DNA of 64,000 bases, taken from Mobula birostris (taxonomy: Eukaryota). Positions within the stretch are counted from its first letter, which is position 1; every line of letters starts with the position of its first letter. This document shows positions 1-64,000 of this stretch, piece by piece. Where the stretch lies: NCBI RefSeq assembly GCF_030028105.1, contig NC_092398.1:15938182-16002181 (forward strand). Reading direction: 5' to 3'. A model generated the notes under the pieces. The model saw only the letters and a list, made by a program, of their open reading frames with translations, ran no database searches and was not told the DNA's origin. A program made the translations under genes and the position numbers.

Positions 1-960
1 ACACGTAAAAGTTGTTGGTGAACGCAACAGGCCAGGCAGCATCCGTAGGAAGAGGCACAGTCGACGTTTCGGGCCGAGACCCATCGTCAAGACTAACTGA
101 AAGAAGAGCTAGTAAGAGATTTGAAGGTGGGAGAGGGAGATCCAAAATGATAGGAGAAGACAGGAGGGGGAGGGATGGAGCCAAGAGCTGGACAGTGGAT
201 TGGCAAAAAAGTATATGAGAGGATCATAGGACGGGAGGCCTAGGGAGAAAGAAAGGGGGAGGTGAGGCATTAACGGAAGTTAGGGAAGTCAATCTTCATG
301 CTATCAGGTTGGAAGCTACCCAGACGGAATATAAGGTGTTGTTCCTCCAACCTGAGTGTGGCTTCATCCTTACAGTAGAGGAGGCCGTGGATAGACATTT
401 CAGAATGGGAATGGGACGTGGAATTAAAATGTGTGGCCACTGGAAGATCCTGCTTTCTCTGGTGGACAGAGTTTAGGTGTTCAGCAAAACAGTCTCCCAG
501 TCTGCATCGGGTCTCGTCAATATATAGAAGGCTGCCTCAGGAGCACTGGACGTAGTATATCACCCCAGCTGACTCACAGGTGAAGATTCATCTCACCTGG
601 AAGGACTGTCTGGGGCCCTGAATGGTAGTGAGGGAGGAAGTATAAGGGCATGTGTAGCACTTGTTCCGCTTATAAGGATAAGTGCCGGGAGGGAGATCGG
701 TGGGGAGGGATGGGGGGGGGGAAACGAATGGACAAGGGAGTCGCGTAGGGAGCGATCCCTGTAGAAAGCAGAGAGACGGGGGGAGGGAAAGATGTTCCTA
801 GTGGTGGGATCCCGTTGGAGGTGGTGGAAGTTACAGAGAATTATATGTTGGACCTGGAGGCTGGTGGGGTGGCAGGTGAGGACAAGGTTATCCCTATTCC
901 TAGTGGGCTGGCGGGAGGATGAGGTGAGAGCAGGTGTGCGTGAAATGTGAGAGATGCATT
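1..960 (-). mobile_element. Penelope-like element 3' fragment (GIY-YIG region and 3' tail), cut by window edge
   Basis: Nearly collinear with the Penelope copy at 31075-32160; same tail, with hammerhead motif at 59-94. Confidence 0.85.
59..94 (-). ncRNA. Minimal type I hammerhead ribozyme motif (C3U variant) in Penelope tail
   Basis: Minus strand reads AGTC-TTGACGA-T-GGGTCTCGGCCC-GAAAC-GTC-GACT: stem I AGTC/GACT, core, stem II, GAAAC-GUC. Confidence 0.7.
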
Positions 961-1011
961 TCAGTGCATGAAATTATTAATGTGGAATATGATCCTAATA
1001 TATCTCTTTCT

Positions 1012-1570
1012 GAGGTGAGGCCGAATCTGGAGTATTGTGTTCAGTTTTGGTCACCAAATTACAGGAAGGACATAAATAAGGTTGAAAGAGTGCAGAGAAG
1101 GTTTACAAGGATGTTACCGGGACTTGAGAAACTCAGTTACAGAGAAAGGTTGAATAGGTTAGGACTTTATTCCCTGGAGCGTAGAAGAATGAGGGGAGAT
1201 TTGATAGAGGTATATAAAATTATGATGTGTATAGATAGAGTGAATGCAAGCAGGCTTTTTCCACTGAGGCAAGGGGAGAAAAAAAACAGAGGACATGGGT
1301 TAAGGGTGAGGGGGGAAAAGTTTAAAGGGAACATTAGGGGGGGCTTCTTCACACAGAGAGTGGTGGGAGTATGGAATGAGCTGCCAGACGAGGTGGTAAA
1401 TGCGGGTTCTTTTTTAACATTTAAGAATAAATTGGACAGATACATGGATGGGAGGTGTATGGAGGGATATGGTCCGTGTGCAGGTCAGTGGGACTAGGCA
1501 GAAAGTGGTTCAGCACAGCCAAGAAGGGCCAAAGGATCTGTTTCTGTGCGGTAGTTTCTATGGTTCTATG
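1012..1570 (+). mobile_element. CR1 LINE 3' fragment
   Basis: ORF2 C-terminus RPNLEYCVQFWSP...GLYSLERRRMRGDLIEVYKI...WNELP; tail ttctatggttctatg. Confidence 0.9.
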
Positions 1571-1619
1571 TCCCTCCATGATTTTCCCTTTTGCCTGTGG
1601 TTGATTTCAGCCTTTGAGA

Positions 1620-2770
1620 AAAGATCAAGTTGAAGAATGATTGTATATCAGTAACACAGGTAGCTCAGTGATATGTGCAAGGCAGACATTATGGATTCTT
1701 ACACTCTACAATGATGGTTCGAAAGATCTAGTGATCTGTTGTTCAGGGTTTTCCGTTTATGTTCCAAAGTTTCAGGTGATTGTTAAGAAGATTATTAGTT
1801 AAAGTATCAGAATTCACGTCTAAGATAATTTTTTTATCATTTTAGCCTTCAAGTGGGTTGAAGAAGTCTGCCCTGATTCTGTACTTCTGTACTTTGATTA
1901 GTTTTTAGTTTTGTTCATGACGTGAGGACATGAATGACATTGGTGATCATGATTGCTCTTTGCAATTTTCTCCACAGAAGTAGTTTATCATTACCTTCAT
2001 CTGGGCAGTGGCTTTACAAGTTTCAGTTTTGACATTGATTAAAACAGGTATATCGAATTATAGGCCAAACATTATTTTTGGTTTCGTTGAGGTTGCAGGG
2101 TGGAGGTGTCTGTATATATCTGTTATGGGTCACTGCCCATGTTGGAGTTGAACAGAATGAAATGGCAGATATTCTAGCCAACCAATCAATTAATTTTAAA
2201 GATATCAATATCATGGTGCCTTTGCATATAGAGGAAATGAAAGCCATAACTAAAAGGTCAGTTTGATCACTGTAGCAACAATCTTTGGATAAGGAAAGGA
2301 AAGGATGGCATTTATAGCAAATTTAGATGATGGTGAAAACTCAACTGGGAAATGGGTATAAAAGAAGGGAAGAAGTTAAACACACATTTACATATTGGAA
2401 GTACTAGGCTGAATAATTCATTGTTCACAATTAATATGCATGATATGAACTTTTGTATGGAGTGCACGTCTCAAGAAACGGTGCAAGATAGATTGTTTGA
2501 ATGCAATTCCCATGAAGTGCAAAGGAAGCAACTAAATTAAGATCTCTGGAACAGACTCAATTTAACATGGAAGGATTGTTAGGATATCACTGCCATTGTA
2601 ATATATACACGTCTGTATTTGACGTTCTGAAAAGCAATAGACCTTTTGATATTTTTGAGGGAGAATTTGATTGGTATTCTTCCTGTCTCTTTACGCCACA
2701 CCCCAGCTCAGGTGGTGGTAATGCACCTTATGTTACTCTGCCAACAGCCATTAAAACTTACAAGAAGAAC
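1620..2770 (+). mobile_element. Nimb/I-group LINE 3' remnant (RNase H, CCHC region)
   Basis: Degenerate DGSK and WVTAHVGVEQNEMAD RNase H motifs, CxxC..ETVQ..LFEC; 3' end ggtggtggtaatgcacc...gccaacagcc...aagaag. Confidence 0.7.
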
Positions 2771-4174
2771 AAAATTTAAAAAGGCTTTTTTCCCCTTAAA
2801 ATCTGATCATCTTGATTTGATTGGATATTTTTAAGAGGTAAAAATATGTACTGATGAGGGTAGTTTCTGAGTTTGACTCAATTACTTAAAAGGGAGTTCA
2901 AGGTAGATGTTTTGATATTATAGTGGAGTAACAGGAATTACAGAAACATAAAAGAGGTGCTGACCAAGTTGATTGAAAGGAGAGATTAGCAGGGATGACA
3001 GTAGTACAGCAACAGCTGGAGTTTCTGGTATTAATTTGGAAGGCACAAGATAGATACATTCCAAAGTTGAAGAATTTTCTTTTCGTTCAGTTTTCTTTTT
3101 TCCCTAGATGCTGCCTGGCCTGCTGAGTTCCTCCAGCATTTTGTGTTTTGCAAGCATGAATAGTAGATTGGCTGATTGGCAGGAGGCAAAGTGTGAATAA
3201 AGGGGGCCTTTTCTGGGTGCCTAACTCTTTTAGTAGTGCTTCCAATTCTGTTAGGAAAATTATTAACACTATCCTTCAAACAGGAAGTTTTCCAGATGCC
3301 TTCAAAACTGCTGCCGTCAAAGCTCTATTAAAAAGCCAAACCTCAACAGTGAGGTACTAGCTAACAGCAGGACTTTCTCAAAACTTCCCATCCTGGGTAA
3401 GATTCTTGAGACAGTAATATTCTAACAACTCAACATTCTGAATGAGAACAATATTCGAGAAAATTTCAGACAGGTCCTCACAAAATCTGTCAGAAACCTT
3501 AGGTTCAGCACTGAGAGAGGAAGAGACTGAACATTTCAGGTCAGAATTTGGAAAGTGAAGCAAAAGCAAGCTTGTTTTAATTTGCAGAAAAGAATGGGGA
3601 GAGATCGATGGGATGAAATTAATATTAGTATAAACCAATGCCAGGTGGAACAGGTTAATGGAGACAATGGTGAATATGATTATCATTCATCAGGTTTCTA
3701 GTAGCAGAGTACGTAGATTCACACTTTCACAGAATGTTACAGAACGAAAACAGGCAATTTGGCCCATCCAGTCCCTACTTTTGTTCCTTTTCTAGAATAT
3801 TATTGTTTATTTTCTGGAGAATTGAGTACAATTCTGAAAAGGTACTGTGTCAGTTATCCATGTCATTCGATAGCAATGTTACTGACTAATCTTAAATATG
3901 AGACGGTAGTAAAAGGGAAATTGATCCAAATCATCTTTCTGGGGAACATTCGAAAATTTTGTAGACACCAGCAAAAAAACTCCCTCCGCTCTGGAAATGA
4001 TTCATCAAACCACCCCCACACATCGACAGAAACAAGTTAAGATACGTTAGTAGGACTTTAGTGTTTTTGTAGAAGGAACTTACTCAGAAACATTTCGCAG
4101 TGACAACGAAACCCGTGTCTTTTACCCCGCGCTTATGGAATCCGCAGAGTTGCTCTTCCACAGAGACTGTGAGC

Positions 4175-10785: not shown

Positions 10786-12179
10786 TGTCATACACGGGGC
10801 TGCTGGGAGAGGACCCAAGTGCGAGACACAGACACTGAAGTACTAGGAAGAGGACTTGACTAGAGAGCTGGGACAAGAACACAGACATAGGCTAGGACAT
10901 TGGCTAGGCAAGCAGGACCAGGACAAGGAACTGGGAACTAGGAGCCTGGGCTTGGACTCCGAGCCGGAGACTGGACAAGGACCTAGAACCTGGGCCTTGA
11001 CCCGGGCCCGGATCCCGGAACTAGGCGAAGACATGACGTGACTACAGGACTGGACATGGCCTGGGTACTTCGAGGCGAAGACATGACGAGGCTTGGGTAC
11101 TTCGAGGCAAGGGCATGACTAGGCTTGGATTCAGACTCTGAGCCAGAGCCTGGACAAGGACCCAGAACCTGGATCTTGACTCGGGCTCAGACTCCGGAAT
11201 TAGGCGTAGACATGACGTGGTCTTGGGGGACAGGACTAGGCAAGGACTAGACAGAACGAGAGACTCCTGGGCAGGACGAGGGAACTCCAGCGCAGGACGA
11301 GGGAACTCCAGCGCAGGACGAGGGAACTCCAGCGCAGGACGAGGGAACTCCAGCGCAGGACGAGGGAACTCCAGCGCAGGACGAGGGAACTCAGGATGAA
11401 GCACATGGACAGGACGAGGCACATAGACAGGATGAAAACACGAAGTCTTGACTTGGTACTCAGGAACAGCTGAGCCTTGGACTGGGGACAGCAGGAACCT
11501 TGGAACCTTGGACTTGGGACAACAGGAATGCAGAACACAAAGCCTTGGTATTGGGGAGGACAGGAACACAGGGACATAGAACACAGAGCCGGGACCCTCC
11601 TTGCGAACAGGACTTGGGGCTGGGGCTCGACACAGAATGCTGAACATGACGAGACGGTTCCCAACCCTAGGTAGCGACAAATGGCCGGACCTACCTAGTG
11701 AAGGCGTGGATACAGAGACAGTTCCAACTCAACGATAGACAGTTCCTTACCTTGACACAGCAAGGCTCCGGTCTCGCTCTGGTGGTGGAACTTAACAAGG
11801 CTGCAGGCGAGGCTCCAGACACAGGTTGTGGGCAAGGCTCCAGAAGGAAGGGGAAGGGAAGGGAACAGTCCAGCCTCAGGGTAACAGCAAAGGCAGCCTG
11901 GCTTACCCAATGGAGGCAAAGACACGGAGGGACAAATCGAACCACAAGGTAACAGCCAAGACGGCCTGACTTACCCCACAGCGGCGAGGACGGGATACTG
12001 ATGAGATGAACCAGCAACCACACACGAACCCAGGGTCACTTTTATTACCAGCTCAAGACAAGCATCAGGTGCCTATGATGAAACCCAGCTGAAGCAAGGT
12101 ACAGCCGGAAGACCTGGAGTCTGGAGCCAAGGACCGGAGTGTGAACCGGAATGTGGACTTCATGGACTAGACCATGACA
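10786..12179 (-). mobile_element. Solo LTR (probably Gypsy-type), about 1.4 kb
   Basis: Termini TGTCAT...ATGACA; 5-bp TSD ACTGG/ACTAG; homologous to 35205-36223. Confidence 0.8.
11271..11392. repeat. 21-bp perfect minisatellite within the LTR
   Basis: GCAGGACGAGGGAACTCCAGC x5 plus a 17-nt partial copy. Confidence 0.95.
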
Positions 12180-31040: not shown

Positions 31041-34032
31041 AAACACGAGGAATTCTGACGATGCTGGAAGTTCAAGCAACACACATCAAAGTTGCTGGTG
31101 AACGCAGCAGGCCAGGCAGCATCTCCAGGAAAAGGTACAGTCGACGTTTTGGGCTGAGACCCTTCGTCAGGACTAACTGAAAGAAGAGCTAGTAAGAGAT
31201 TTGAAAGTGGGAGGGGGAGGAGGAGATCCAAAATGATAGGAGAAGACAGGAGGGGGAGGGATGGAGCCAAGAGCTGGACAGTTCATTGGCAAGAGGGATA
31301 TGACAGGATCCTGGGACAGGAGGCCCAGGGAGAAAGACAAGTGGGGGGGGGGACCCAGAGGATGGGCAAGGGATATAATGAGAGGGACAGAGAGAGAAAA
31401 AGGAGAGAGAGAGAAAGAATGTGTGTATATACATAAATAATGGATGGGGTACGAGGGGGAGGTGGGGCATTAGTGGAAGTTTGAGAAGTCAATGTTCATG
31501 CCATCAGGTTGGAGGCTACCCAGACGGAATGTAAGGTGTTCTTCCTCCAACCTGAGTGTAGCTTCATCTTTACAGTAGAGGAGCCCGTGGATAGACATAT
31601 CAGAATGGGAATGGGACGTGGAATTAAAATGTGTGGCCACTGGGAGATCTTGCTTTCTCTGGCGAACCGAGCATAGGTGTTCAGTGAAACGATCTCCCAG
31701 TCTGCGTCGTGTCTTGCCAATATATTGAAGGCCACATTGGGAGCACCGGACACAGTATATCACCCCAGCCAACTCACAGGTGAAGTGTCGCCTCACCTGG
31801 AAGGACTGTTTGGGGCCCTGAATGGTGGTGAGGGAGGAAGTGTAAGGGCATGTGTAGCACTTGTCCTGCTTACAAAGATAAGAGCCAGGAGGGAGATCGG
31901 TGGGGAGGGATGGGGGGGGCGTGAATGGACAAGTGAGTCACTTAGGTAGCGATCCCTGCAGAAAGCAGAGATGGGGGGGGAGGGAAAGATGGAGGGAAAG
32001 ATGTGGTGGGATCCCTTTGGAGGTGGCGGAAGTTACGGAGAATAACATGTTGGACCCGGAGGCTGGTGGGGTGATAGGTGAGGACAAGGGGAACCTTATT
32101 CCTAGTCAGGAGGCGGGAGGATGGAGTGAAAGCAGATGTGTGTGAAATGGTGGAGATGCGTTTGAGAGCAGAGTTTATGGTGGAGAAAGGGAAGCTCCTT
32201 TCTTTAAAAAAGGGGGACATCTCCCTCGTCCTGGAAGGAAAAGCCTCATCCTGAGAGCAGATGCGGCGGAGATGGAGGAATTGCGAGAAGGGGATGGCAT
32301 TTTTGTAAGAGACAGGGTGAGAAGAGGATTGTCCAGATAGCTGTGAGAGTCAGTTGGCTTATAGTAGACATCAGTAGATAAGCTGACTCCAGAGATAGAG
32401 ACAGAAAGATCTAGAAAGGGGAGGGAGGTGTCGGAAATGGACCAGGTAAACTTGAGGGCAGGGTGAAAGTTGGGGGCAAAGTTAATGAAGTCAACAAGCT
32501 CAGCAAGCGTGCAGGAAGCAGCGCCAATGCAGTCGTGGATGTAGCGAAGTAAAAGTGGGGGACAGATACCAGAATAGGTTTGGAACATAGATTGTTCCAC
32601 AAAGCCAACAGAAAGGCAGGCATAGCTAGGACCCATACGGGTGCCCATAGCTACACCTTTAGCTTGGAGGACGTGGGAGGAGCCAAAGGAGAAATTATTA
32701 AGAGTAAGGACTAATTCCGCTAGACGGAGCAGAGTGGTGGTAGAGGGGAACTGGTTAGGTCTGCAATTCAAAAAGAAGTGGAGAGCTTTGAGACTTTCCT
32801 GATGGGGAATGGAAGTATACAGTATAGGGACTAGACATCCATGGTGAAAATAAAGCGGTGGGGGCCGGGGAACTTAAAATCATCGAAAAGTTTAAGAGCA
32901 TGACAAGTGTCACGAACATAGGTAGGAAGGGATTGAACAAGGGGAGATAAAACGGTGTCGAGGTATGCATAAATGAGTTCGGTGGGGCAGGAGCAAGCTG
33001 AGACTATAGGTCTGCCAGGACAGGCAGGTTTGCGGATCTTGGGTAGGAGGTAGAAACGGGAAGTGCGAGGTGTGGGAACTATAAGGTTGGTAGCAGTGGA
33101 TGGGAGATCCCCTGAGCGGATAAAGTCGGTGATGGTGTGGGAGACAATGGTCCGGTGCTCCTTAGTGGGGTCACGATCGAGGGGTAAATAAGAGGAGGTA
33201 TCCGCGAGTTGTCGCTGTGTCTCGGCAAGGTAGAGGTCAGTAGGCCAGACTACAAAAGCACCCCCCTTATCAGCGGGTTTTATACTAAGGTTAGGATGAG
33301 TGCGGAGGGAGTGGAGAGCAGAGCGTTCGGAACTCCCGATGTGGCTTTCTATGTATTGGCGAGACCCGACGCAGACTGGGAGACCGCTTTGCTGAACATC
33401 TACGCTCTGTCCGCCAGAGAAAGCAGGATCTCCCAGTGGCCACACATTTTAATTCCACATCCCATTCCCATTCTGACATGTCTATCCACGGCCTCCTCTA
33501 CTGTAAAGATGAAGCCACACTCGGGTTGGAGGAAGAACACCTTACATTCCGTCTGGGTAGCCTCCAACCTGATGGCATGAACATTGACTTCTCTAGCTTC
33601 CGCTAATGCCCCACCTCCCCCTCGTACCCCATCCATTATTTATTTATATACACACATTCTTTCTCTCACTCTCCTTTTTCTCCCTCTGTTCCTCTGACTA
33701 TACCCCTTGCCCATCCTCTGGGTTCCCCCCACCTTTCCTTCTCCCCGGGCCTCCTGTCCCATGATCGTCTCATATCCCTTTTGCCACCCACCTGTCCAGC
33801 TCTCGGCTCCATCACTCCCCCTCCTGTCTTCTCCTTTCATTTTGGATCTCCCCCTCACCCTCCCACTTTCAAATCTCTTACTAGCTCTTCCTTCAGTTTG
33901 TCCTGACAAAGGTTCTCGGCCCGAAACGTCGACTGTACCTCTTCCGAGAGATGCTGCCTGGCCTGCTGCGTTCACCAGCAACTTTGATGTGTGTTACTTG
34001 AATTTCCAGCATCTGCCGAATTCCTCGTGTTT
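31041..34032 (-). mobile_element. Penelope-like element with RT, GIY-YIG and an inverted terminal duplication
   Basis: KPADKGGA, FYLLPKIRK..PGRPIVS, GVAMGTRMGPSYA, RYIHD, PFLDL, VYYKPTDS; GIY-YIG at 31470-31796; 33330-34032 is an inverted copy of 31041-31740. Confidence 0.92.
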
Positions 34033-52713: not shown

Positions 52714-53562
52714 TTAAACTTTTCCCCCAGTGTGAACCCGGTAGTGTGTTACAAGGTTGGATGAGTGAGTGAATCCCTTCCCACATTCAGAACAGGTGAA
52801 TGGTCTCTCCCCCGTGTGAACCCGGTAGTGTGCCACAAGGGTGGATGACTGAGTGAATCCCTTCCCACAGTCAGAGCAGATGAACGGCCTCTCTCCAGTG
52901 TGAATTCGGTGGTGTATCTGCAGACTGGATTGCTGAGTGAATGCCTTACCACAGTCTGAGCAGGTGAATGGCTTCTCCCCAGTGTGAACTCGCTGATGTA
53001 TCTTCAGTTGAGATGACCGAATAAATTTCTTCCCACAGTCTGAGCAAATGAACGATCTCTCCCCAGTATGAACTGACTGGTGTGCTAACAGGTCAGAGGA
53101 TCGAGTGAATCCTTTCCCACAGTCTAAGCACGTGAACGGCCTCTCCCCAGTGTGAACTCGCTGATGTAGCTTCAGATGAGATGACCGAGTGAATCCTTTT
53201 CCACAGTCTGAGCAGATGAATGGTCTCTCCCCAGTGTGAATTGACTGGTGTGCTCGTAGGTCAGATGACCAAGTGAATGTCTTCCCACAGTCTGAGCAGG
53301 TGAATGGCCTCTCTCCAGTGTGAAGTCGCTGGTGTGTCTGCAGGCTGGATGACTGAGTAAATGCCCTACCACAGTCCGAGCAGGTGAACGGTCTCTCCCC
53401 TGTGTGAACTCGGTGATGTAGCTTCAGTTCAGATGGCCGAGTGAACCCCTTCCCACAGTCTGAGCAGGTGAATGGCCTCTCCCCAGTGTGAAGTCGCTGA
53501 TGTATCTTCAATTGATATGAGTCAGGAAATCCCTTCACACAATCTGAACAAGTAAACGGCAT
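52714..53562 (-). CDS. Tandem C2H2 zinc-finger protein, 10 fingers, no effector domain seen (282 aa)
   Basis: Ten 28-aa repeats CxxC-x12-HxxxH with TGERPF linkers from ATG 53562; in-frame TGA at 53646-53644 upstream. Confidence 0.85.
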
Positions 53563-53998
53563 CTCCACAGTATGAAAACACTTGTGTGTCAGAAGACCAG
53601 ATGATGGTGTGAATCTTTTCCCACACACACAACAGTTGAATGGTCACTCTCCCTTGGGAACTCTCTGGAGCGACAGCAGGTTGCCTGAGTGAGTGAATCT
53701 CTTCCCAGACATGGGACAGGTGAACAGTCTCTCACAGGTGTGAATTTTCTGATGTATTTCCAGCTTGGCTGACAAAATTAATTAATTCCCGCAGACAGAA
53801 CAGGTGAATCCTTTCATATATGGTGTCAACGGGCTAATATTTCTTCAGGCTGGATAACTGAGTACATTCCTCACCCACACAGCAGGTGACTTGCCTCTCT
53901 CCATATTAAACACACTGGGGTGTCTGCGAACCGGCGGCTGCGTGAGTGAACTCCTTGTGTTTGAGATTCCCAGATACAAATTCTTTGCTGTTTCAATC

Positions 53999-55439: not shown

Positions 55440-57720
55440 CAGTTTTTATGTAGAGTACTTTGCAGCTTCTTTAACGCAGGAAGCTCCCACAAACAATCCT
55501 GCCCTTGTTTAACATAGCAAAGTGCAGTACCTTACACTGTCCAAATTGCAATCTATCCGCCATTCTTTGTCCATTGCCCCATTTCATCGAGATCCCATTG
55601 TAACCTTAGATAAACATCTTCACTGTGCCCTACATCCCCAGTTTTAGTGTTAGCTGTGAACTCATTGATAATGTTAAAAAAAATGTTAATATAGATGGCA
55701 AACAACAGTGGGCCCAGCACTGATCCCTCTAGCGCATTAGTCACAGACCTCCAATTCTCCAACATCAACTGCCGTCTCCTTCCATGAAGAGAAATTTGCA
55801 CCCATTGGCTTGCTCACCCCGGATTCCACGTGAACTGAGCTTCCAGACCATTCTACCTTGCAGGACCTCACAAAAGGCCTTGCTGAAGTCTGTGGAGACA
55901 ATGTGTCAATCCTCTTGTTCACCTCTCCAAAGAAAAAACTCAGATTGATGAGACACCATTTCCCGTATGCAAAGCCAGGCTGATGATCCCTAAATAGTCT
56001 TTGCCCTTTCATTGTTGGAAACATTCTTGTGAACCTCTTCAGGATTCTTTCCAATTCTACCGCATCCCTCAGATGAGAGGCCAAAACTGTTGATAATACT
56101 TCCAAGTGCATTCTGCTCCTCTCAAAAGGAATACTAGTGTTTCATTTCCCTTTAATACAAACGAATCAATGGCTGCAGGGAGTCCTGCAAAGAATTTGCA
56201 AGCGTCATATCAGATTGGAATTCTGGTTTGAGAGGGCGCTGATGAAGTACAGTGATTACTTGCTAGCGGCGAATGAAACAAAGAAAACAATTAAATATTA
56301 ATCATACTTTTTCTGGTAAGTGGCCATTGCCAACAATATACTAACTTCCCTGTAAGATTGGTGCTGTTGAGTTGCCTGTAGCATCTGGTATTTTTGCAGT
56401 GGGAACTGAAGTCCCAAAGGTGCAGAACGATTGCTTTGTGGAGTGTGAGGGACCAGTCGAGATGGCGAGGTCTGGACTGGTGAGCGGGGAATTGGCCAAG
56501 TATGGCCATTGCTGGTGCGGACTTGGAGGCAATGAGATCCGGCAGAACCGTGTCGAGGTTGATGGATTTCTTTAGATTTAATGGGATCTATTGGGGTTTC
56601 TTTGTTTTGTGGCTGCCTGTAAGGAAACAAATCTCGAGGTTGTATATAGTATACAACCTTGATAATAAATGTACTTTGCTAATATCTGTGGTTGATTAAG
56701 CATTCTTATTTGTTTAAATAACTGTAGGTGACTGCAAGGGTAAAAAGACCCTGGTGGGCGTTCTTTACTGGCCTCCGAATGTAGCCACAATGTGGTACAC
56801 AAGTTACAATGGGAAATAGAAAAGTTGCGTCAAAAAGGAAAAGTTATGTTAGTCAAAGTGTAGGCAGGTTAGGAAAAAAGTAGCGTTTGATGCTGGATCC
56901 CAAAGGACAGAATTTGAAGAATACCTGTGAGATGGCTTTTTAGAGCAGCTTATCATTGAGCACACTAGGAGATGGGCAATTTTGGATTGGGTGTTATGTA
57001 ATAACCCAGATTTGATTAGGAAGCTTCAGGTAATAGAACCCTTGGAAGACAGTGATTATATTTTGTAAGAATTCACCCTGCTGTTTGAGAAGGAGAATCT
57101 AAAATCAGACATACCACTATTATTGTGGAGCAAAGGGAATTACAGAGGCATGAGAGATTAGTTGGCCAAAGTTGATTGGATTCTATCAATGATGATGTCA
57201 GAACAGCAATGGTTGAGTTTCTGGGAGAAATTAAAAAGGTGCAGGTAAGATGCTTGCCAGAGATAAAGAAGTATTCTAGAGGACATCTGAGGCCACTGAG
57301 GCTGCCAACAGGTCATAGACAGCATAAAAGTAAATGGGAGGCATATAATATCACAAAAAGTCATGGGAGGTTAGAGGTTGGGAAGCTTATAAAAAGTAAC
57401 AGAGTTTTACGGTTTCAAGGTACTTGGAAGTGCATGAGAAACTTTCAGGGTGCTTGGAGGTACCTGAGAAAATAGTCCAAAGTCAGCATGGTTTTCTAAA
57501 AAGGAAGTATTCCCTGGCAAATTGTTAAATTCTTTGCGGAAATAACAGGCAGGATTGACAAAGGAGAGTCATTGGCTGTTGTACAGTTGGAATTTCATAA
57601 AGCCTTTGACCAGGTGCCACATGTGAGGCTGCTTAACAAAATATGAGCCCGTGTTATTTCAAGAAAGGTACTGGTATTGAAGGAAGATTGGCTGACAGGC
57701 AGAAGGCAAAATGTGGGCGT
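55440..57720. mobile_element. CR1 remnants in both orientations plus a Rex-tail element
   Basis: EGSVLGPLLFAIYIN; VELERILKRFTRM; degenerate APE/RT at 56750-57720. Confidence 0.65.
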
Positions 57721-58297
57721 GTGGAGCAAAGGTGGCATGAGAGAGCATCTTGTTTGGGCTCATTTGTGGAAATGTCCCTTTAATGTCTCTTTTTTTTTTG
57801 CTTTTCAATGTGGATGGCATTCTGGCAGTGCTGTTGTTTGGAGGTCAGTAAAGAACTTCCAACAGGGTCTTTTTTCACTCTTGCAGTTTCTTCTCTTATA
57901 AAATCTACAGGATTTCACATCTTCCTATACTATGTCACCTCCTTCCAAAGATTTGATTTCATTTTTTTTAACCAACAGAACTACCCGCTTCCTCTTGCCT
58001 ACCTGCCCGTCCTTTCGTTACAATATCTGTTCTTACATGTCAGCTCCCAACAATGATCTTTCAGCCGCAACTCAGAGATGCCCACAACGTCTTACCTGCC
58101 AGTCTTTAACTGGACCACGTGGTCATCTACCTTATTCCCTATACTTGGTAATTAAAATATAACTCCTTCAGTCCTGTATTCATCATCCTTTTTTATTTTG
58201 CCCTACACTTTAATTCATCCCACTGACTGTAATTTTTCCCTATCTTCTGTCTGCCCTTCCACACATTCTGACTGAACAATGCATCTAGTTGTATACC

Positions 58298-59092
58298 TGT
58301 TGACAATTCATCGACTAAACTAGGGTAGACGATTCACTACTCAAGTCTTGATTAACCAAAGCTGGCTCTTTATTGTCTCTGCACAAACAATATCAAAACT
58401 ATATTGACCCCAGCCAAAAATTTAAAACATGAATTTGACAGAGCCCTCGGTACCAATACTCAGTGAGTCCATTTCTCTGATTTATAACAATGAAATAGAA
58501 TCACCTGTTGACCAGACGATTGATCCTTTCTTTTTTCAGACCTGGGCATGGGGTCCTTGCAATAGTTTGTTTGTGGAATTCTTGCCACTTTTCATTTGAA
58601 GTTCCTGACTTTTAACACTTTTTATCAGTTCAAGTGTTGCGCGTCAATCTTGTTGGCTTGAAGTTGCTTGACTGACCGTCAGATTCCCATTGGATGTAGT
58701 CCAAGGGCTGCATGATTTTGTGCCATAGGTAACTTATTTTGTTTGTTCTATTCAACTCTGGTTCAAACCAGTCAAACGGAATCACCTAAACACTGGACCA
58801 AAATAACAAATTTACTTCTGCACGCATGCTCTTGTATACAATAACAGCTTATCTGAGAATGATTTCATGTTTAGCAGATCAATAACAGAAGTTCCTGGTG
58901 TCCACGTTCAACTGCTGTGGTTACGTTATCACAGAGCAAGAATTAGTTCTTCAAACCATTCACAAAATGGAGGCTACAGAGCAGTTTCACAAAATGGTAA
59001 CCTCTATTCCTTCAAGCAGAATGCAAGAACAAAGACAATTTGCCTACTTCCACTGTCCTTGATTCATTAGACTTCATTGTTTTCTTCCAACA
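58298..59092 (-). mobile_element. Putative 3' LTR of the provirus
   Basis: Minus strand TGTTGG...TCAACA; AATAAA about 70 nt before the end; homologous to 59770-60598. Confidence 0.65.
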
Positions 59093-59769
59093 TTCACCAA
59101 TGCAAATTTCAGGAGTGTCCTGTTATTGACAGGCAAAATAGGCAGAACAATTATCGTATGAAACAAGCCCACAATCTGTTAACCTGTTCTTAAGTACATC
59201 CTCCAGACAAACCCAATATTCTGCTTTTGAATGACTGGAAGTCAAACTTACTCTCTTTGCACATCCTTGCTATTTAGTAGCATAAGTATGTGGATTAGTA
59301 AGTGAAATGCAGAGTCCTTTTTGATATTTCCCAACATTATGAACCAAAATGTCCAAAAGCTCCTGGAGTCTTTTTCCATGCTGGTGAGGAACTTGTGGTG
59401 ATGTCAAGTTGAACAGCACTTGCAGAGGTTTATATCCTGGTACCTGCATAATTTGTCCTTCTGTTTCTTCTAGTGCAAGTTTGTATCTGTCTGAAACTCA
59501 TCACACTAGTGACTAGCAACAGTTGTCACTGCAATGGTTGACACAGCAACCGATTCCACCATGGCGTAAGCTATACACAGAAGACTTTGATGCTCCAGAG
59601 CAACTGCGATTGAGTTACCTGGGTCACATGATCTCTCTTCTAATTTGTCCACATCGCCAACACCATTACATTTGAAATGAACTTGTACATGAGTTATAAG
59701 CCCTCTTTCTCTTCAGGCCGGACCTGCAAAACACGACTTACCACTATTAGCATTCTAGCCAGAAAGAAC

Positions 59770-60598
59770 TGCAGTCTACAAATCAGTGAATTTAAGTGAA
59801 ACAAGGACAGTGGAAGTAGACAAACCAGTTATCTTTGTTCTTTCCATGGCCAAAGGAATGGCGGCTGCCGCTGTGTGAAGCTGCTCTCTATTCTCCATTT
59901 TGTAGACCAATTTTGTTTGACTGAATCAATATTTTAAAGTAGACACAACAATGCATCAGGTGATCTATTGTGCTAGATCATTTCTAAATAAGTCAGTTGT
60001 TTGTGAGATGCTATTTGCTGTGATATAACATGCAGGTTTGTGAATGGTGGGTTCTGTGTCTGCCCTGAGTCATTTGTGCTGAGTACAGGTTTGGTAACTG
60101 ATTTAGAACAAAGAGCCATAAGTTACCAGTTGTCACTTCTGGAAGAGAGCAAAAAATAGATACTGACTTGGATCTAAAGTCCCATAGGTCACTCAGGTGA
60201 CCTGGAGCAACATGTGAACCGATAAGAAGTGTTTAAAAGCAAGGAGCTTCAAATCCAAAGCAGCGACAACTCTCCAGGGACCAACTATCATGGATGTGAA
60301 GTACCCACAGACACGTTGCGATCGGATCGGGACCATAAGGAACACTTGGCCAGCATAAACTTATTTTCTAGGTATTACCTTTCCTGTGGTTTGACAGGGA
60401 AATTTAGTAGTTGGACACACAGGCATGCAGTTCTGTAAATTCACAAACCTTTCAGCTGAGATAATGAAGGATATTATCAGTAAATTAAGATTCTCTATAT
60501 GCTTAACTGATTATTAATACTAACGGGTAATCCTTGTAACAACCTTAATCCTCTAATCTTTTACCCACATTACCATTACTTGACCAGGATTATCAACA
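59770..60598 (+). mobile_element. Related solo LTR inserted antisense inside the provirus
   Basis: Shares blocks caaggacagtggaagtag, ctccattttgt and ataagttacc with the 3' LTR; ends TCAACA. Confidence 0.6.
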
Positions 60599-62282
60599 AA
60601 CATCGGTCTCATTTCCTTTATAAGGCTTCATCTCAGGTTTTCATGAATTTGTATTACCATTTCACTTCCCTCTTCCATATAGTCTACTGTTACCACGGCA
60701 TCTGATGGAATCCAAAGAGACTTCTCCATGAATGTTGTGAATAGCCATCCACCGCCATCCTAATCTTCATATCTTGCATTTGTCCAGATGAATATACAAT
60801 TGACACAATCTCCCTTCTACATCCCTCTTTCATTGGCTCCACCTTTGTTTAGGCGACTGCAAAGATTGTCTTGCCTTAACACTTTTTTTTTTATGTTGAG
60901 CATGAAGTGAACGATCTTTAACCTCCAGGTGCGAACCAGAAGTGGTTGCCCAACTCAGTGAGGAGTCAACTACCCCTTCATCCTCATTGTCATCAGTTGC
61001 TTGAAACATAAATCTCAGAGTATCACCATTGTCAAACAAGGCATTCCTTTGACAATGCTTCTGATGGACCTCGGCTACGAGTGAACATTGACCAACTCCA
61101 AGAGGTTTAAGATGGTTAATATGATACCAACTTGCTTATTTGGAGCTGTCTGGGTTTGATAACATGATAGACTGGCTTTGTCACTGACATCATATGGTCC
61201 AATAAATCTTGGATATGTAAAAGGACCCGGATAATGAACTGAGATCATACCTTCTCTACTCTTTCCAACTCTCTTGGTTTTATTCTCACGTCAAAATAAG
61301 CTTTAATTTACCATTTATTCTGTTTCATATTATGGGCTGCAACATAATTGCTTCATCAATAGTGTTAATTGCTATACAGTACTCTATTGTCCTTTACAAT
61401 GCCATTATAATCAGGCTCTGATAAATCCAGTGAAACCAAGAATTCTAACCATCTCATTTCTCTCCAGTGGAAAAAGCTTCAGTGTTACAGATTATCATAA
61501 GGGTAGAGGAAAAAAACAGTGACCCGCATGGTCCTGGGCTGTTTAGCCATTTTAGCTGACATTGATTTTAAAGTCCTGTTCATCTGTTCAACAATTTCAC
61601 TGGATTGGGGTCAGTAAGGAACGTGGAACCTTTGTTTTACCTCAAACAGTTTCATCAGATTTTGTTTCACCTGTGCAGTGAGGTAGGGACTTGCCTTCTT
61701 AATTATAAACTTCCAGCAAGGCTGCTGATGGTAAAAGTGTACCATCTGCTGAGACATAGCCTCCAGCTTCCCATAATGGTAAAGATTTGGTTCAACAGTT
61801 ACAACAGTACGTGCTACCTGAGCATATGACTGCTCCTGAGGGATATCGGTCTGGATAGTTGACAACAGAAGTTATAGCGTCACGCTCTGCCACTTCTACA
61901 CACATTGTTTCAGGTAGTTTGATTGCAGCACTTTGCAATCCTCTTTTTTTGTCCTGTCCATATATACCACATCCTGTAAGTCTCTCTCCATCCTGAACTG
62001 ATGATGATCCATCAACAGCGATCCTTAAAGAGGAAATTTCCTGTTGCATGACTTTATTTTCCACTCCTGATTTTAAGATGGGGATGAATGGTCCATTCAG
62101 AACTTGTACTACTGTCACCTGACATGCATGAGGGTCACCCTGATTAGATAAATTGTCAGTGGGCATAGTTGTGCTGTTAATTCTCTTAACTGCAGCATTG
62201 CGGCCCAATAATAGCTATGTCTATTGGACTAGTTGAGTTTTGCTGACATTCCCATCCTTCGTATGATCATCCAATTTTGGAA

Positions 62283-62560
62283 GGCATGGTAGTGTTGTGG
62301 TTAGCACAAGATTTACAGTACCTTGACCTGGGTTCAGTTCCTGCCACTGTCTGTAAGGAGTTTGTACGTTCTCCATGTGATTGCATGGGTTTCCTCTGAG
62401 TGTTCTGGCTTCCTCCCACAGTCCAGAGAATTTCTGGTTTGTAAGTTAGTTGGCCATTGGAAATTGTCCTGTGCTTTGGCTGGGATTAAATTAAGGGAAT
62501 ACTGGCAGCACGACTGAAGGGCTGAGAGGGCATATTCAACACTGTACCTCAAAGAAAAAA
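62283..62560 (+). mobile_element. tRNA-derived V-SINE (HE1-like) inserted in the ERV pol
   Basis: A/B-box head (gtggttagcac...gggttcagttcc) and V-domain ggagtttgtacgttctcc...tgggtttcctc...ttcctcccacagtcca. Confidence 0.8.
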
Positions 62561-62571
62561 AACTGAATTGG

Positions 62572-63013
62572 AAGGATGCTTCGGCTCCCACTTTGTCACA
62601 ATGGTTCTCTCAAGTGATGCTATGTCGTAGTTTGGAGAACATTAGAAGTTGAACCTTTGAACCTATGTTTGATTTTGAGAAAAGATGGGGTTCGTTTGCT
62701 CGTTATTATCATTTGAGTTAATTGATAGATTTCCTCCACGATCTAGTTGTAAATTTTTGGTACTTTTTTTTCTTGCTGGCGGTTTGATATTTATCTTAAG
62801 AAGCTTTTTGTATGATGCATGGCTCCGGGGTTGAACACCTAATGGGGACTTTTCCCCCACTTTTTCTTGCTTAATGGGGTTTTTTTAATCACCAAAATTT
62901 TTTCAATCTTTAAAATAATGTTTTTTTTCTTGAGGCATTGTAAGTGTTGCTTACTTCAATGTACTCATGTTAATTTTGGATAATAATAATAAAAAGATTT
63001 GAAAAGAAAAAAT
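62572..63013 (+). mobile_element. L1-clade LINE 3' fragment inserted at the SINE tail
   Basis: WKDASAPTLSQW..SLENIR..FEKRWGSF; AATAAA and A-rich tail; TSD ACTGAATTGG at 62562 and 63014. Confidence 0.75.
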
Positions 63014-64000
63014 ACTGAATTGGTGTATGATCTGTTTAAACTGGTCAGTGGATTAAGACCGACAACATAAGTGAGATGTTTAACTGACGGAAACAATGCT
63101 AGTGGATAATGCTAAAAGTTGTGCACGTAAGCGATCAAGATGCACGTCCTAATGGCTCCAGTCGACCATCTGTTTCTTGGAGTAACACGGCTGATATCAT
63201 GTTGCTGGTGGCAACCACCGCCAAAGTGAATGACCCGGAGGGTCTGGGGTGCTGAGAACAGGTGCTTCTGCAATGCTAGTTCTGCAATGCTAGTTTTATG
63301 AACTGAAACTGCCTTAGTGTTGCTGTGGTTTCCATTCCCATGAAACACCTTTCTTCAAGATCTTTATTTATTGGATAAGCCTTGGCATCTATGTGGTCTC
63401 TACAATAGCCCAGCAATCGGAGAAACAAACTCACCTCAGTAGGAAGAGTTAGTTTCACCACTACATCCACATGCTGTTTATCTATCTCTCTCCTCAGGAG
63501 TTATGACCACTTCCGAGAATTTGACCCTCTGCATAATGATTTGTACTTTTATTGGGTTAACCTTCAAAACCATCTCCTGTAACAGTTATAGTAGTTCTTT
63601 CAGTAACTCACAATGCTCCTCTACAGTATTCTGCTTAATCATAGTCTCAGGAATTGTGGTTACAATAAGAGTTGAAGGGGTAGCTTCATTCAAATATCAG
63701 TAATCTAGGTCAGTCTCCAACTCACATCATATTTCTGAACTGACCATATGGGTGAATTATTTGTGGATGTTATTTCTCCCGAAACTCCATGTGTTAAACA
63801 ACTCTGAATAATATTCTCCACATCTGCCAAATGGAAATCCATTTTACTGTTCGGGTTCAGGTCAGGAATTTGTATTCACTCCTGTCCTTGCATCCTGCCA
63901 CATTTGTGTTATGTTTTGCAAATACTGCATGGAAATCTGAAGTACATTGTCTGGCCTTTGAGTCCTCGGTCATATCTTCTGCCTTCCCCCATGTCTCTCC

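Follow-up and report, generated by a model that had tools for sequence, protein, structure and literature searches.

We analysed a window of 64,000 nucleotides from the genome of Mobula birostris (contig NC_092398.1, forward-strand positions 15,938,182 to 16,002,181) and found that its end, from position 58,298 to 64,000, carries on the minus strand a dead, heavily deleted 3' part of a defective endogenous retrovirus (ERV). The polymerase gene (pol) of this element falls inside the canonical Retroviridae and outside the lokiretroviruses (Loki). The reading that we hold with high confidence is that of a defective ERV within canonical Retroviridae, likely of the snakehead-retrovirus-related grade (class III, "clade Huo"), whose family likely extends across sharks and rays. 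The copy is probably old, and its family is probably an unnamed one within this known deep clade.

Pol remnants and their decay

From position 64000 down to about 61100 the pol pieces follow one another on the minus strand in retroviral order, namely reverse transcriptase (RT), tether, second RNase H and integrase, with the GPY/F motif near 61200 (Table 1). Both this order and the motifs named in the original prediction were borne out by the open reading frames (ORFs), Pfam, tblastn and hhalign. The RT N-terminus was mapped to 63908-63708, with a short continuation to 63640, by ten pieces placed on the RT-tether alignment and by tblastn to three relatives; its motif lies inside the minus-strand ORF 63705-63875 and the thumb motif inside the minus-strand ORF 63276-63500. 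The tether ORF 63135-63275 matched Pfam RT_RNaseH_2 at E=4.5e-4, weaker than the curated cut-off. A contig of sequencing run X1 extends 1691 letters beyond 64000, so the element goes on past the window edge; its 5' long terminal repeat (LTR), gag and protease fall outside the window.

Mapping on the RT alignment showed a deletion of about 83 RT codons, the catalytic core including the YxDD region among them, and tblastn a second one of about 260 codons that starts at the end of the RNase H and takes in the zinc finger and the greater part of the core of the integrase, in agreement with the earlier claim that the YxDD core and the integrase N-terminus are lacking in this copy. Several frameshifts and stops interrupt the RT remainder, six measured pol pieces together hold 8 stops in 457 codons with frameshifts in addition, and the second RNase H has an incomplete catalytic set and a deleted C-terminus. 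Furthermore, the tether is split by about 730 bp of foreign repeat DNA, composed of a short interspersed element (SINE) and a second repeat, a feature that goes beyond the original prediction. Because the RT catalytic core and most of the integrase are lost, and stops, frameshifts and inserted repeats are present, the copy would be unable to replicate on its own. At one of the thumb/tether frameshifts, at 63280-63310, some 14 bases are duplicated in tandem.

Table 1. Features of the element and of the DNA inserted into it, in window coordinates.
Feature	Position	Strand	Basis
3' LTR	58298..59092	-	motif scan; homology to antisense copy from 59085; patchy X1 depth 300-1100
Possible env remnant, hydrophobic stretches	59093..59777	-	hydropathy alone
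Antisense LTR-like copy	59778..60598	+	homology to 3' LTR, shuffles; TCAACA end at 60598
Internal sequence where env would begin	60599..61099	-	position; no similarity found
Integrase core end and C-terminal domain, GPY/F	61100..61692	-	hhalign probability 98.1, E=8.5e-14; tblastn
Tether C-terminal part, linker and second RNase H	61693..62274	-	protein search, RNase H tree
SINE-like repeat, probable 8-bp target duplication	62284..62565	+	sequence; contig depth
A/T-rich high-copy repeat, 10-bp direct repeat at flanks	62573..63015		sequence; contig depth
Tether N-terminal part (degenerate first RNase H)	63009..63274	-	Pfam RT_RNaseH_2; tblastn to P0023/P0024
RT remainder: internal deletion, then palm end and thumb	63323..63705	-	fragment mapping on RT alignment; tblastn
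Protease-RT linker end and RT N-terminal part	63708..64000	-	tblastn to P0024: 41% over 70 aa, E=1e-9 within element

Relatives of the element

A protein search among 1.84 billion representatives gave five matches, all to one minus-strand frame and all in its RNase H region (ORF 61792-62214, linker plus second RNase H; best match E=1.8e-29). These were P0001, P0003 and proteins of basking shark (P0002), whale shark (P0004) and bullfrog (P0005), and a white shark protein (P0006) is the cluster mate of P0002. Sharks thus supply all three of the closest RNase H relatives with a species name, which supports a cartilaginous-fish host, and the RNase H of the element is 41-53% identical to P0001, P0002, P0004 and P0006. 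P0001, P0002 and P0006 keep an open RNase H, and no RT was obtained from these or from P0004. The basking shark and white shark proteins are annotated as stand-alone "ribonuclease H-like" frames, are 93% identical over 180 aa and have intact acidic catalytic RNase H positions; the two frames could be orthologous remnants, members of a younger family or a co-opted RNase H.

When 139 proteins were compared by summed tblastn scores, the top values (228-284 bits) belonged to coelacanth P0023, the frog proteins P0022, P0024, P0021 and P0005, and P0026, and the best Loki-type protein scored 152 bits. The frog and coelacanth pols, annotated as "NYNRIN-like" (P0005, P0021-P0025), together with P0026 have the highest RT, tether and RNase H scores among full-length pols; they share at most about 43% identity with the element over aligned RT columns and keep open frames, in contrast to the dead element. 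Word-index protein searches returned no relatives of the RNase H frame among 2252 candidates and none of the RT frame among 1126, sequence searches of the PDB with both frames gave nothing significant, and a scan of viral contigs with P0005 gave no match. A search with an RNase H alignment yielded no confirmed relative among 72 metagenome stretches. One with a pol alignment brought up 80 metagenome loci, all of them distant (24-41% identity in the best segments) and without a match to the 3' region of the element. One of the loci, L026, is a 7.2-kb metagenome contig with an open retroviral pol of 1185 aa, 32% identical to P0026, and an open gamma-type env.

Phylogenetic placement

Reference sequences were selected with P0005 as query, which gave 547 pols, and the best 120 of the 547 entered the selection. 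From these 120, 82 were kept together with 8 viral pols, the RT-tether segment was recovered from 87 of the 90, and after redundant rows had been dropped 48 references were used in the RT-only tree and 36 in the RT+tether tree. All trees were computed under the single model LG+G4 and held three fish Loki rows. P0043/L001 was labelled snakehead retrovirus as it is identical to the RT row in the supplement of PMC7947760; P0035, P0038 and P0042 were labelled Loki by eye, and L002-L014 foamy viruses by motif, from the same supplement. P0057 was named walleye epidermal hyperplasia virus 1, and the labels "Gypsy" and "ERV-L-like" were given according to domains, motifs and tree position.

In the RT-only tree (49 rows) the element stood inside the canonical retroviruses with support of 100/100, as sister to P0026 (87/90), and Loki, foamy and Gypsy sequences were each separate at 100/100. 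The RT+tether tree (37 rows) placed it in a 90/98 group with P0026 and five frog and coelacanth pols. Two 100/100 branches set it apart from the Gypsy-type rows and from Loki. In both RT trees the class I (gamma/epsilon) rows formed a clade of their own (100/98-100/99) and the foamy rows another (100/100), neither including the element, which stayed outside the foamy clade in the RNase H tree too. The assignment to Retroviridae on the grounds of a tether plus second RNase H, and away from Ty3/Gypsy, is therefore in line with the 100/100 RT trees, and the deep-branching position that had been proposed agrees with the element's place among the deep class III branches. The likeness to spuma- and Loki-type polymerases in the original prediction was not supported: the approximately unbiased (AU) test rejects a grouping of the element with Loki (p=0.0035), and the best trees never join it to foamy viruses. 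With P0026 as a full-length stand-in, the AU test gave p=0.003 for the grouping with Loki, p=0.042 with foamy viruses and p=0.38 with snakehead virus, the last of these being not rejected.

For the RNase H tree the domain was recoverable in 36 of 41 references. Here the element, P0001, P0002, P0006, P0004 and P0026 formed a 100/99 clade, and Loki and foamy sequences a separate 96/96 clade that excludes the element. A 90/90 branch separated snakehead virus from the shark, frog and ERV-L-like RNase H rows, which it left together with Loki and foamy viruses; this closeness to the Loki+foamy side is only a lead, as it comes from a tree without host RNase H outgroups.

Long terminal repeat and env region

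The LTR announced by the original prediction is present. On the minus strand TATAAA (58486), AATAAA (58374) and a terminal TCAACA ending at 58298 follow in LTR order, and the AATAAA is the only one on this strand in 58200-61100. With a start at TGTTGG (59092) the 3' LTR would measure about 795 bp, 59092-58298, and an alternative start lies at 59336; TG..CA ends, TATA and polyA signals are present in it, its 5' border being the presumed one. According to contig depth a high-copy host repeat flanks the 3' LTR end. Neither a clear polypurine tract nor a target duplication was found at the LTR borders.

A further feature not contained in the original prediction is the putative second, antisense LTR-like insertion at about 59778-60598. 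The plus-strand blocks 59778-59903 and 60205-60294 match 59085-58962 and 58642-58554 on the minus strand, colinearly and with 74-81% identity, and the score of each was reached by 0 of 300 shuffles. A middle block was weak (reached by 2 and 28 of 300 shuffles) and extensions inwards and outwards were not significant, so that an inverted alignment of the LTR regions that spanned 1.1 kb was reduced by shuffling to the two significant blocks. The plus-strand TCAACA at 60598 stands 36 bases off its colinear position.

The inverted repeat at 58554-60294 could also be a DNA transposon in its own right, bounded by long terminal inverted repeats, in which case the LTR would shrink to about 58298-58616 and the rest would be foreign. 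The two colinear inverted blocks, a summed contig depth that is high in both arms and low between them, and LTR borders with no clear polypurine tract or target duplication would suit such a transposon. Nevertheless, each arm runs towards a TCAACA terminus, at 58298 and at 60598, and these two sites are almost colinear; the homology begins 7 bases past a TGTTGG, the TATA and polyA signals stand downstream in LTR order, and a search for a transposase gave no match on either strand. In addition, CmiERV lineage I of the elephant shark, which clusters with snakehead retrovirus (Han 2015, PMC4422223), carries an LTR of a similar TGTT..AACA kind, about 830 bp long when counted by eye. We therefore regard the transposon as possible but rather doubtful, and continue with the 3' LTR and its antisense copy. 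Contigs of run X12, which we guess to be an RNA run, hold LTR-like stretches about 80% alike at 58843-59089 and 59995-60172, and other LTR-like copies may be transcribed, to judge from these contig sequences.

Between pol and the 3' LTR about 1.2 kb is left for a putative env. The env-like stub described earlier found no backing there, since no Pfam, snakehead, foamy or gamma-type env match was obtained and much of the stub is LTR DNA, the antisense copy included. Compared with the env of snakehead virus and of six foamy viruses, 1 of 21 frame comparisons exceeded all 100 shuffles; this lone score (59, foamy virus L009) lies inside the antisense LTR-like copy and was treated as chance. A tblastx comparison of the region with 105 loci gave a best E=0.29, the scores of a gamma-type transmembrane profile (10 loci) were reached by 36, 105 and 145 of 200 shuffles, and the paramyxovirus F-type env PF00523 was not matched at E up to 1 in this decayed region. 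Rfam gave 0 matches across 56000-64000.

Copies of the family and age of the insertion

Summed contig depth in run X1, counted over contigs of at least 80% likeness and not to be read as a copy number, came to 123-199 for four sites in pol and 555-1121 for several in the LTR, compared with about 7 for single-copy contigs. This suggests a multi-copy family with more LTR copies than internal copies. In organism C (run X6) one contig spans the RNase H-SINE junction (record 23) and another spans 60598 (record 20), at about 91-93% identity. In organism D (run X7) pieces with few differences were found, none of which, among the pieces listed, crosses such a junction. Because the organism C contigs bridge two locus-specific junctions, the insertion likely predates a species split; it would be an orthologous insertion older than the A-C split, and thus likely older than the divergence from one or more other sequenced species.

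From its anatomy and established retroviral biology, the ancestral virus would have integrated into the germ line by means of its own RT, RNase H and integrase. The deletions may have arisen during reverse transcription or after integration, and the copy was then likely inherited as neutral DNA, decaying.

Both repeats in the tether are abundant. The summed X1 depth of the A/T-rich repeat at 62573-63015 is 20,000-60,000, against the same single-copy value of about 7; that of the SINE-like repeat reaches up to 100,000, with many loose ends at 62324-62396. The SINE-like repeat may resemble V-SINE/HE1. The depth of the A/T-rich repeat was 770-3,500 in organism D versus 12,000-60,000 in A or C, a contrast that suggests lineage-specific amplification.

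Elsewhere in the window

About 4.7 kb past the LTR end, the minus-strand region 52714-53643 holds an open C2H2 zinc-finger array of 309 aa, with 12 Pfam stretches in the wider frame. At 31041-31751 and 33325-34032 lies an inverted pair of about 700 bp with 90% identity; a further copy is found near 1-553, and these are likely young repeat copies. A 21-bp tandem repeat with near-identical units occupies 11242-11409.

Discussion

Among the closest described systems are the snakehead-related ERVs. These make up clade Huo, present in all major vertebrate lineages (PMC6001957), and have been described in coelacanth, frogs and other anamniotes (PMC4977317, PMC4131045, 10.1101/2021.11.23.469661); most cartilaginous-fish ERV RTs belong to clade III (10.1101/2023.10.17.562709). 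The view that such lineages are poorly described in elasmobranchs is therefore not supported, CmiERV I (PMC4422223) and the clade III majority having been published, and no further shark data appear in the available parts of PMC9040795, PMC8278194, PMC10435555 and PMC12440569. By eye, CmiERV I is like the element in its cartilaginous-fish host, in RT N-terminal, tether and linker motifs (P0024 type), in a short purine tract and in an LTR with the same type of ends and of similar length. In contrast, its RNase H start is nearer to Xenopus P0024, its LTR sequence has no obvious likeness, and it carries a gamma-type env (LQNR motif, CX6CC), which was not detected in the element. Snakehead retrovirus shares the order protease, RT, tether, RNase H and integrase and is similar to the element at the RT N-terminus (35% over 71 aa) and RNase H (29% over 93 aa), but its RNase H falls outside the element's group and its env similarity is not above chance. 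The RT likely nests in a catalogued ERV group at the level of the clade, and probably not at that of the family, for which no naming paper was found in the literature searched, subscription papers being mostly outside it; the family may be in Repbase or Dfam.

Several points weigh against the snakehead-related placement and the age given to it. The base of the retroviruses is an open fork that includes snakehead virus, which is not recovered as a supported sister, and in the RT trees the element sits within no starred branch smaller than half the tree. It fills 188 RT columns and has a long branch (about 1.0), and the trees were made without fish foamy-like ERVs, Odin, true ERV-L and CmiERV I. 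The label "snakehead-related" accordingly follows from motif likeness, best scores and the literature label of CmiERV I. Trees that join the element to foamy viruses have a poorer score, though the AU test does not reject them (p=0.22 for RT, p=0.14 for RT+tether), and the orthology in organism C is based on two short contigs.

It is conceivable, at a low probability, that the element represents an elasmobranch-wide deep lineage distinct from both CmiERV I and snakehead virus, with an RNase H nearer to the Loki/foamy type than that of snakehead virus and a paramyxovirus-F-like env.

It is unlikely that the element is one of the foamy-like ERVs of fish (clade Tu), such as CmiFLERV or the catshark ERV-Spuma.0-Sca. 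The RNase H frame had as its best PDB match 2lsn, "RNase H" (E=1.1), and Pr125Pol chains were among the 10 matches of the RT frame (E=0.39-0.7). We presume both to be foamy virus proteins, and their scores are not significant. By eye the thumb motif is like that in the RT rows given for fish foamy-like ERVs in the PMC7947760 supplement, and foamy-like ERVs are published for catshark (PMC10699275). The unrejected AU grouping also speaks for this origin; however, the element is never found with foamy viruses in the best trees, and its stand-in P0026 departs from them in the AU test (p=0.042). Moreover, the RT N-terminal motif is of the frog/coelacanth and snakehead type, unlike the foamy-like one, and the frog and coelacanth pols score far higher than the 13 foamy pols.

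An assignment to the lokiretroviruses, of which this would be the first case in cartilaginous fish, we consider highly improbable. The defining features of lokiretroviruses are the position of their RT, a dual RNase H and an F-like env (PMC7947760). Like the element they have a tether plus second RNase H and a similar tether C-terminus; close relatives of the element are annotated NYNRIN-like, and the Loki integrase is reported near CGIN1 (PMC7947760). With Loki found in 0 of 6 chondrichthyan genomes in that paper, a host gap does exist, one that a genuine cartilaginous-fish lokiretrovirus would have closed. Nevertheless this reading is rejected: the RT and RNase H trees and both AU tests separate the element from Loki, Loki proteins score about half as high as the frog/coelacanth group, no F-like env was detected, and the same tether features are present in snakehead virus. 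An initial assignment of this kind, with P0005 taken as Loki-Rca, was abandoned as the motifs of P0005 are absent from the available text of the Loki supplement and the trees exclude it. The position of the RT inside the canonical retroviruses likewise argues against membership in Odin. Finally, an ordinary Ty3/Gypsy retrotransposon, to which the Gypsy RNase H motifs kept in the tether, the GPY/F motif and the lack of a detected env could point, can practically be dismissed given the second RNase H and the 100/100 branches that split its RT from Gypsy-type rows.

Decay of the copy is too advanced for it to decide questions of deep phylogeny or the type of env. Were a deep lineage with an F-type env to prove true, it would be a bridge for tracing the exchange of RNase H and env at the root of Retroviridae. 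As a likely member of the snakehead-related grade, the element adds a probably uncatalogued shark and ray family to a class III grade that is poorly resolved, and the junctions shared between species could act as an orthologous marker for its minimum age.

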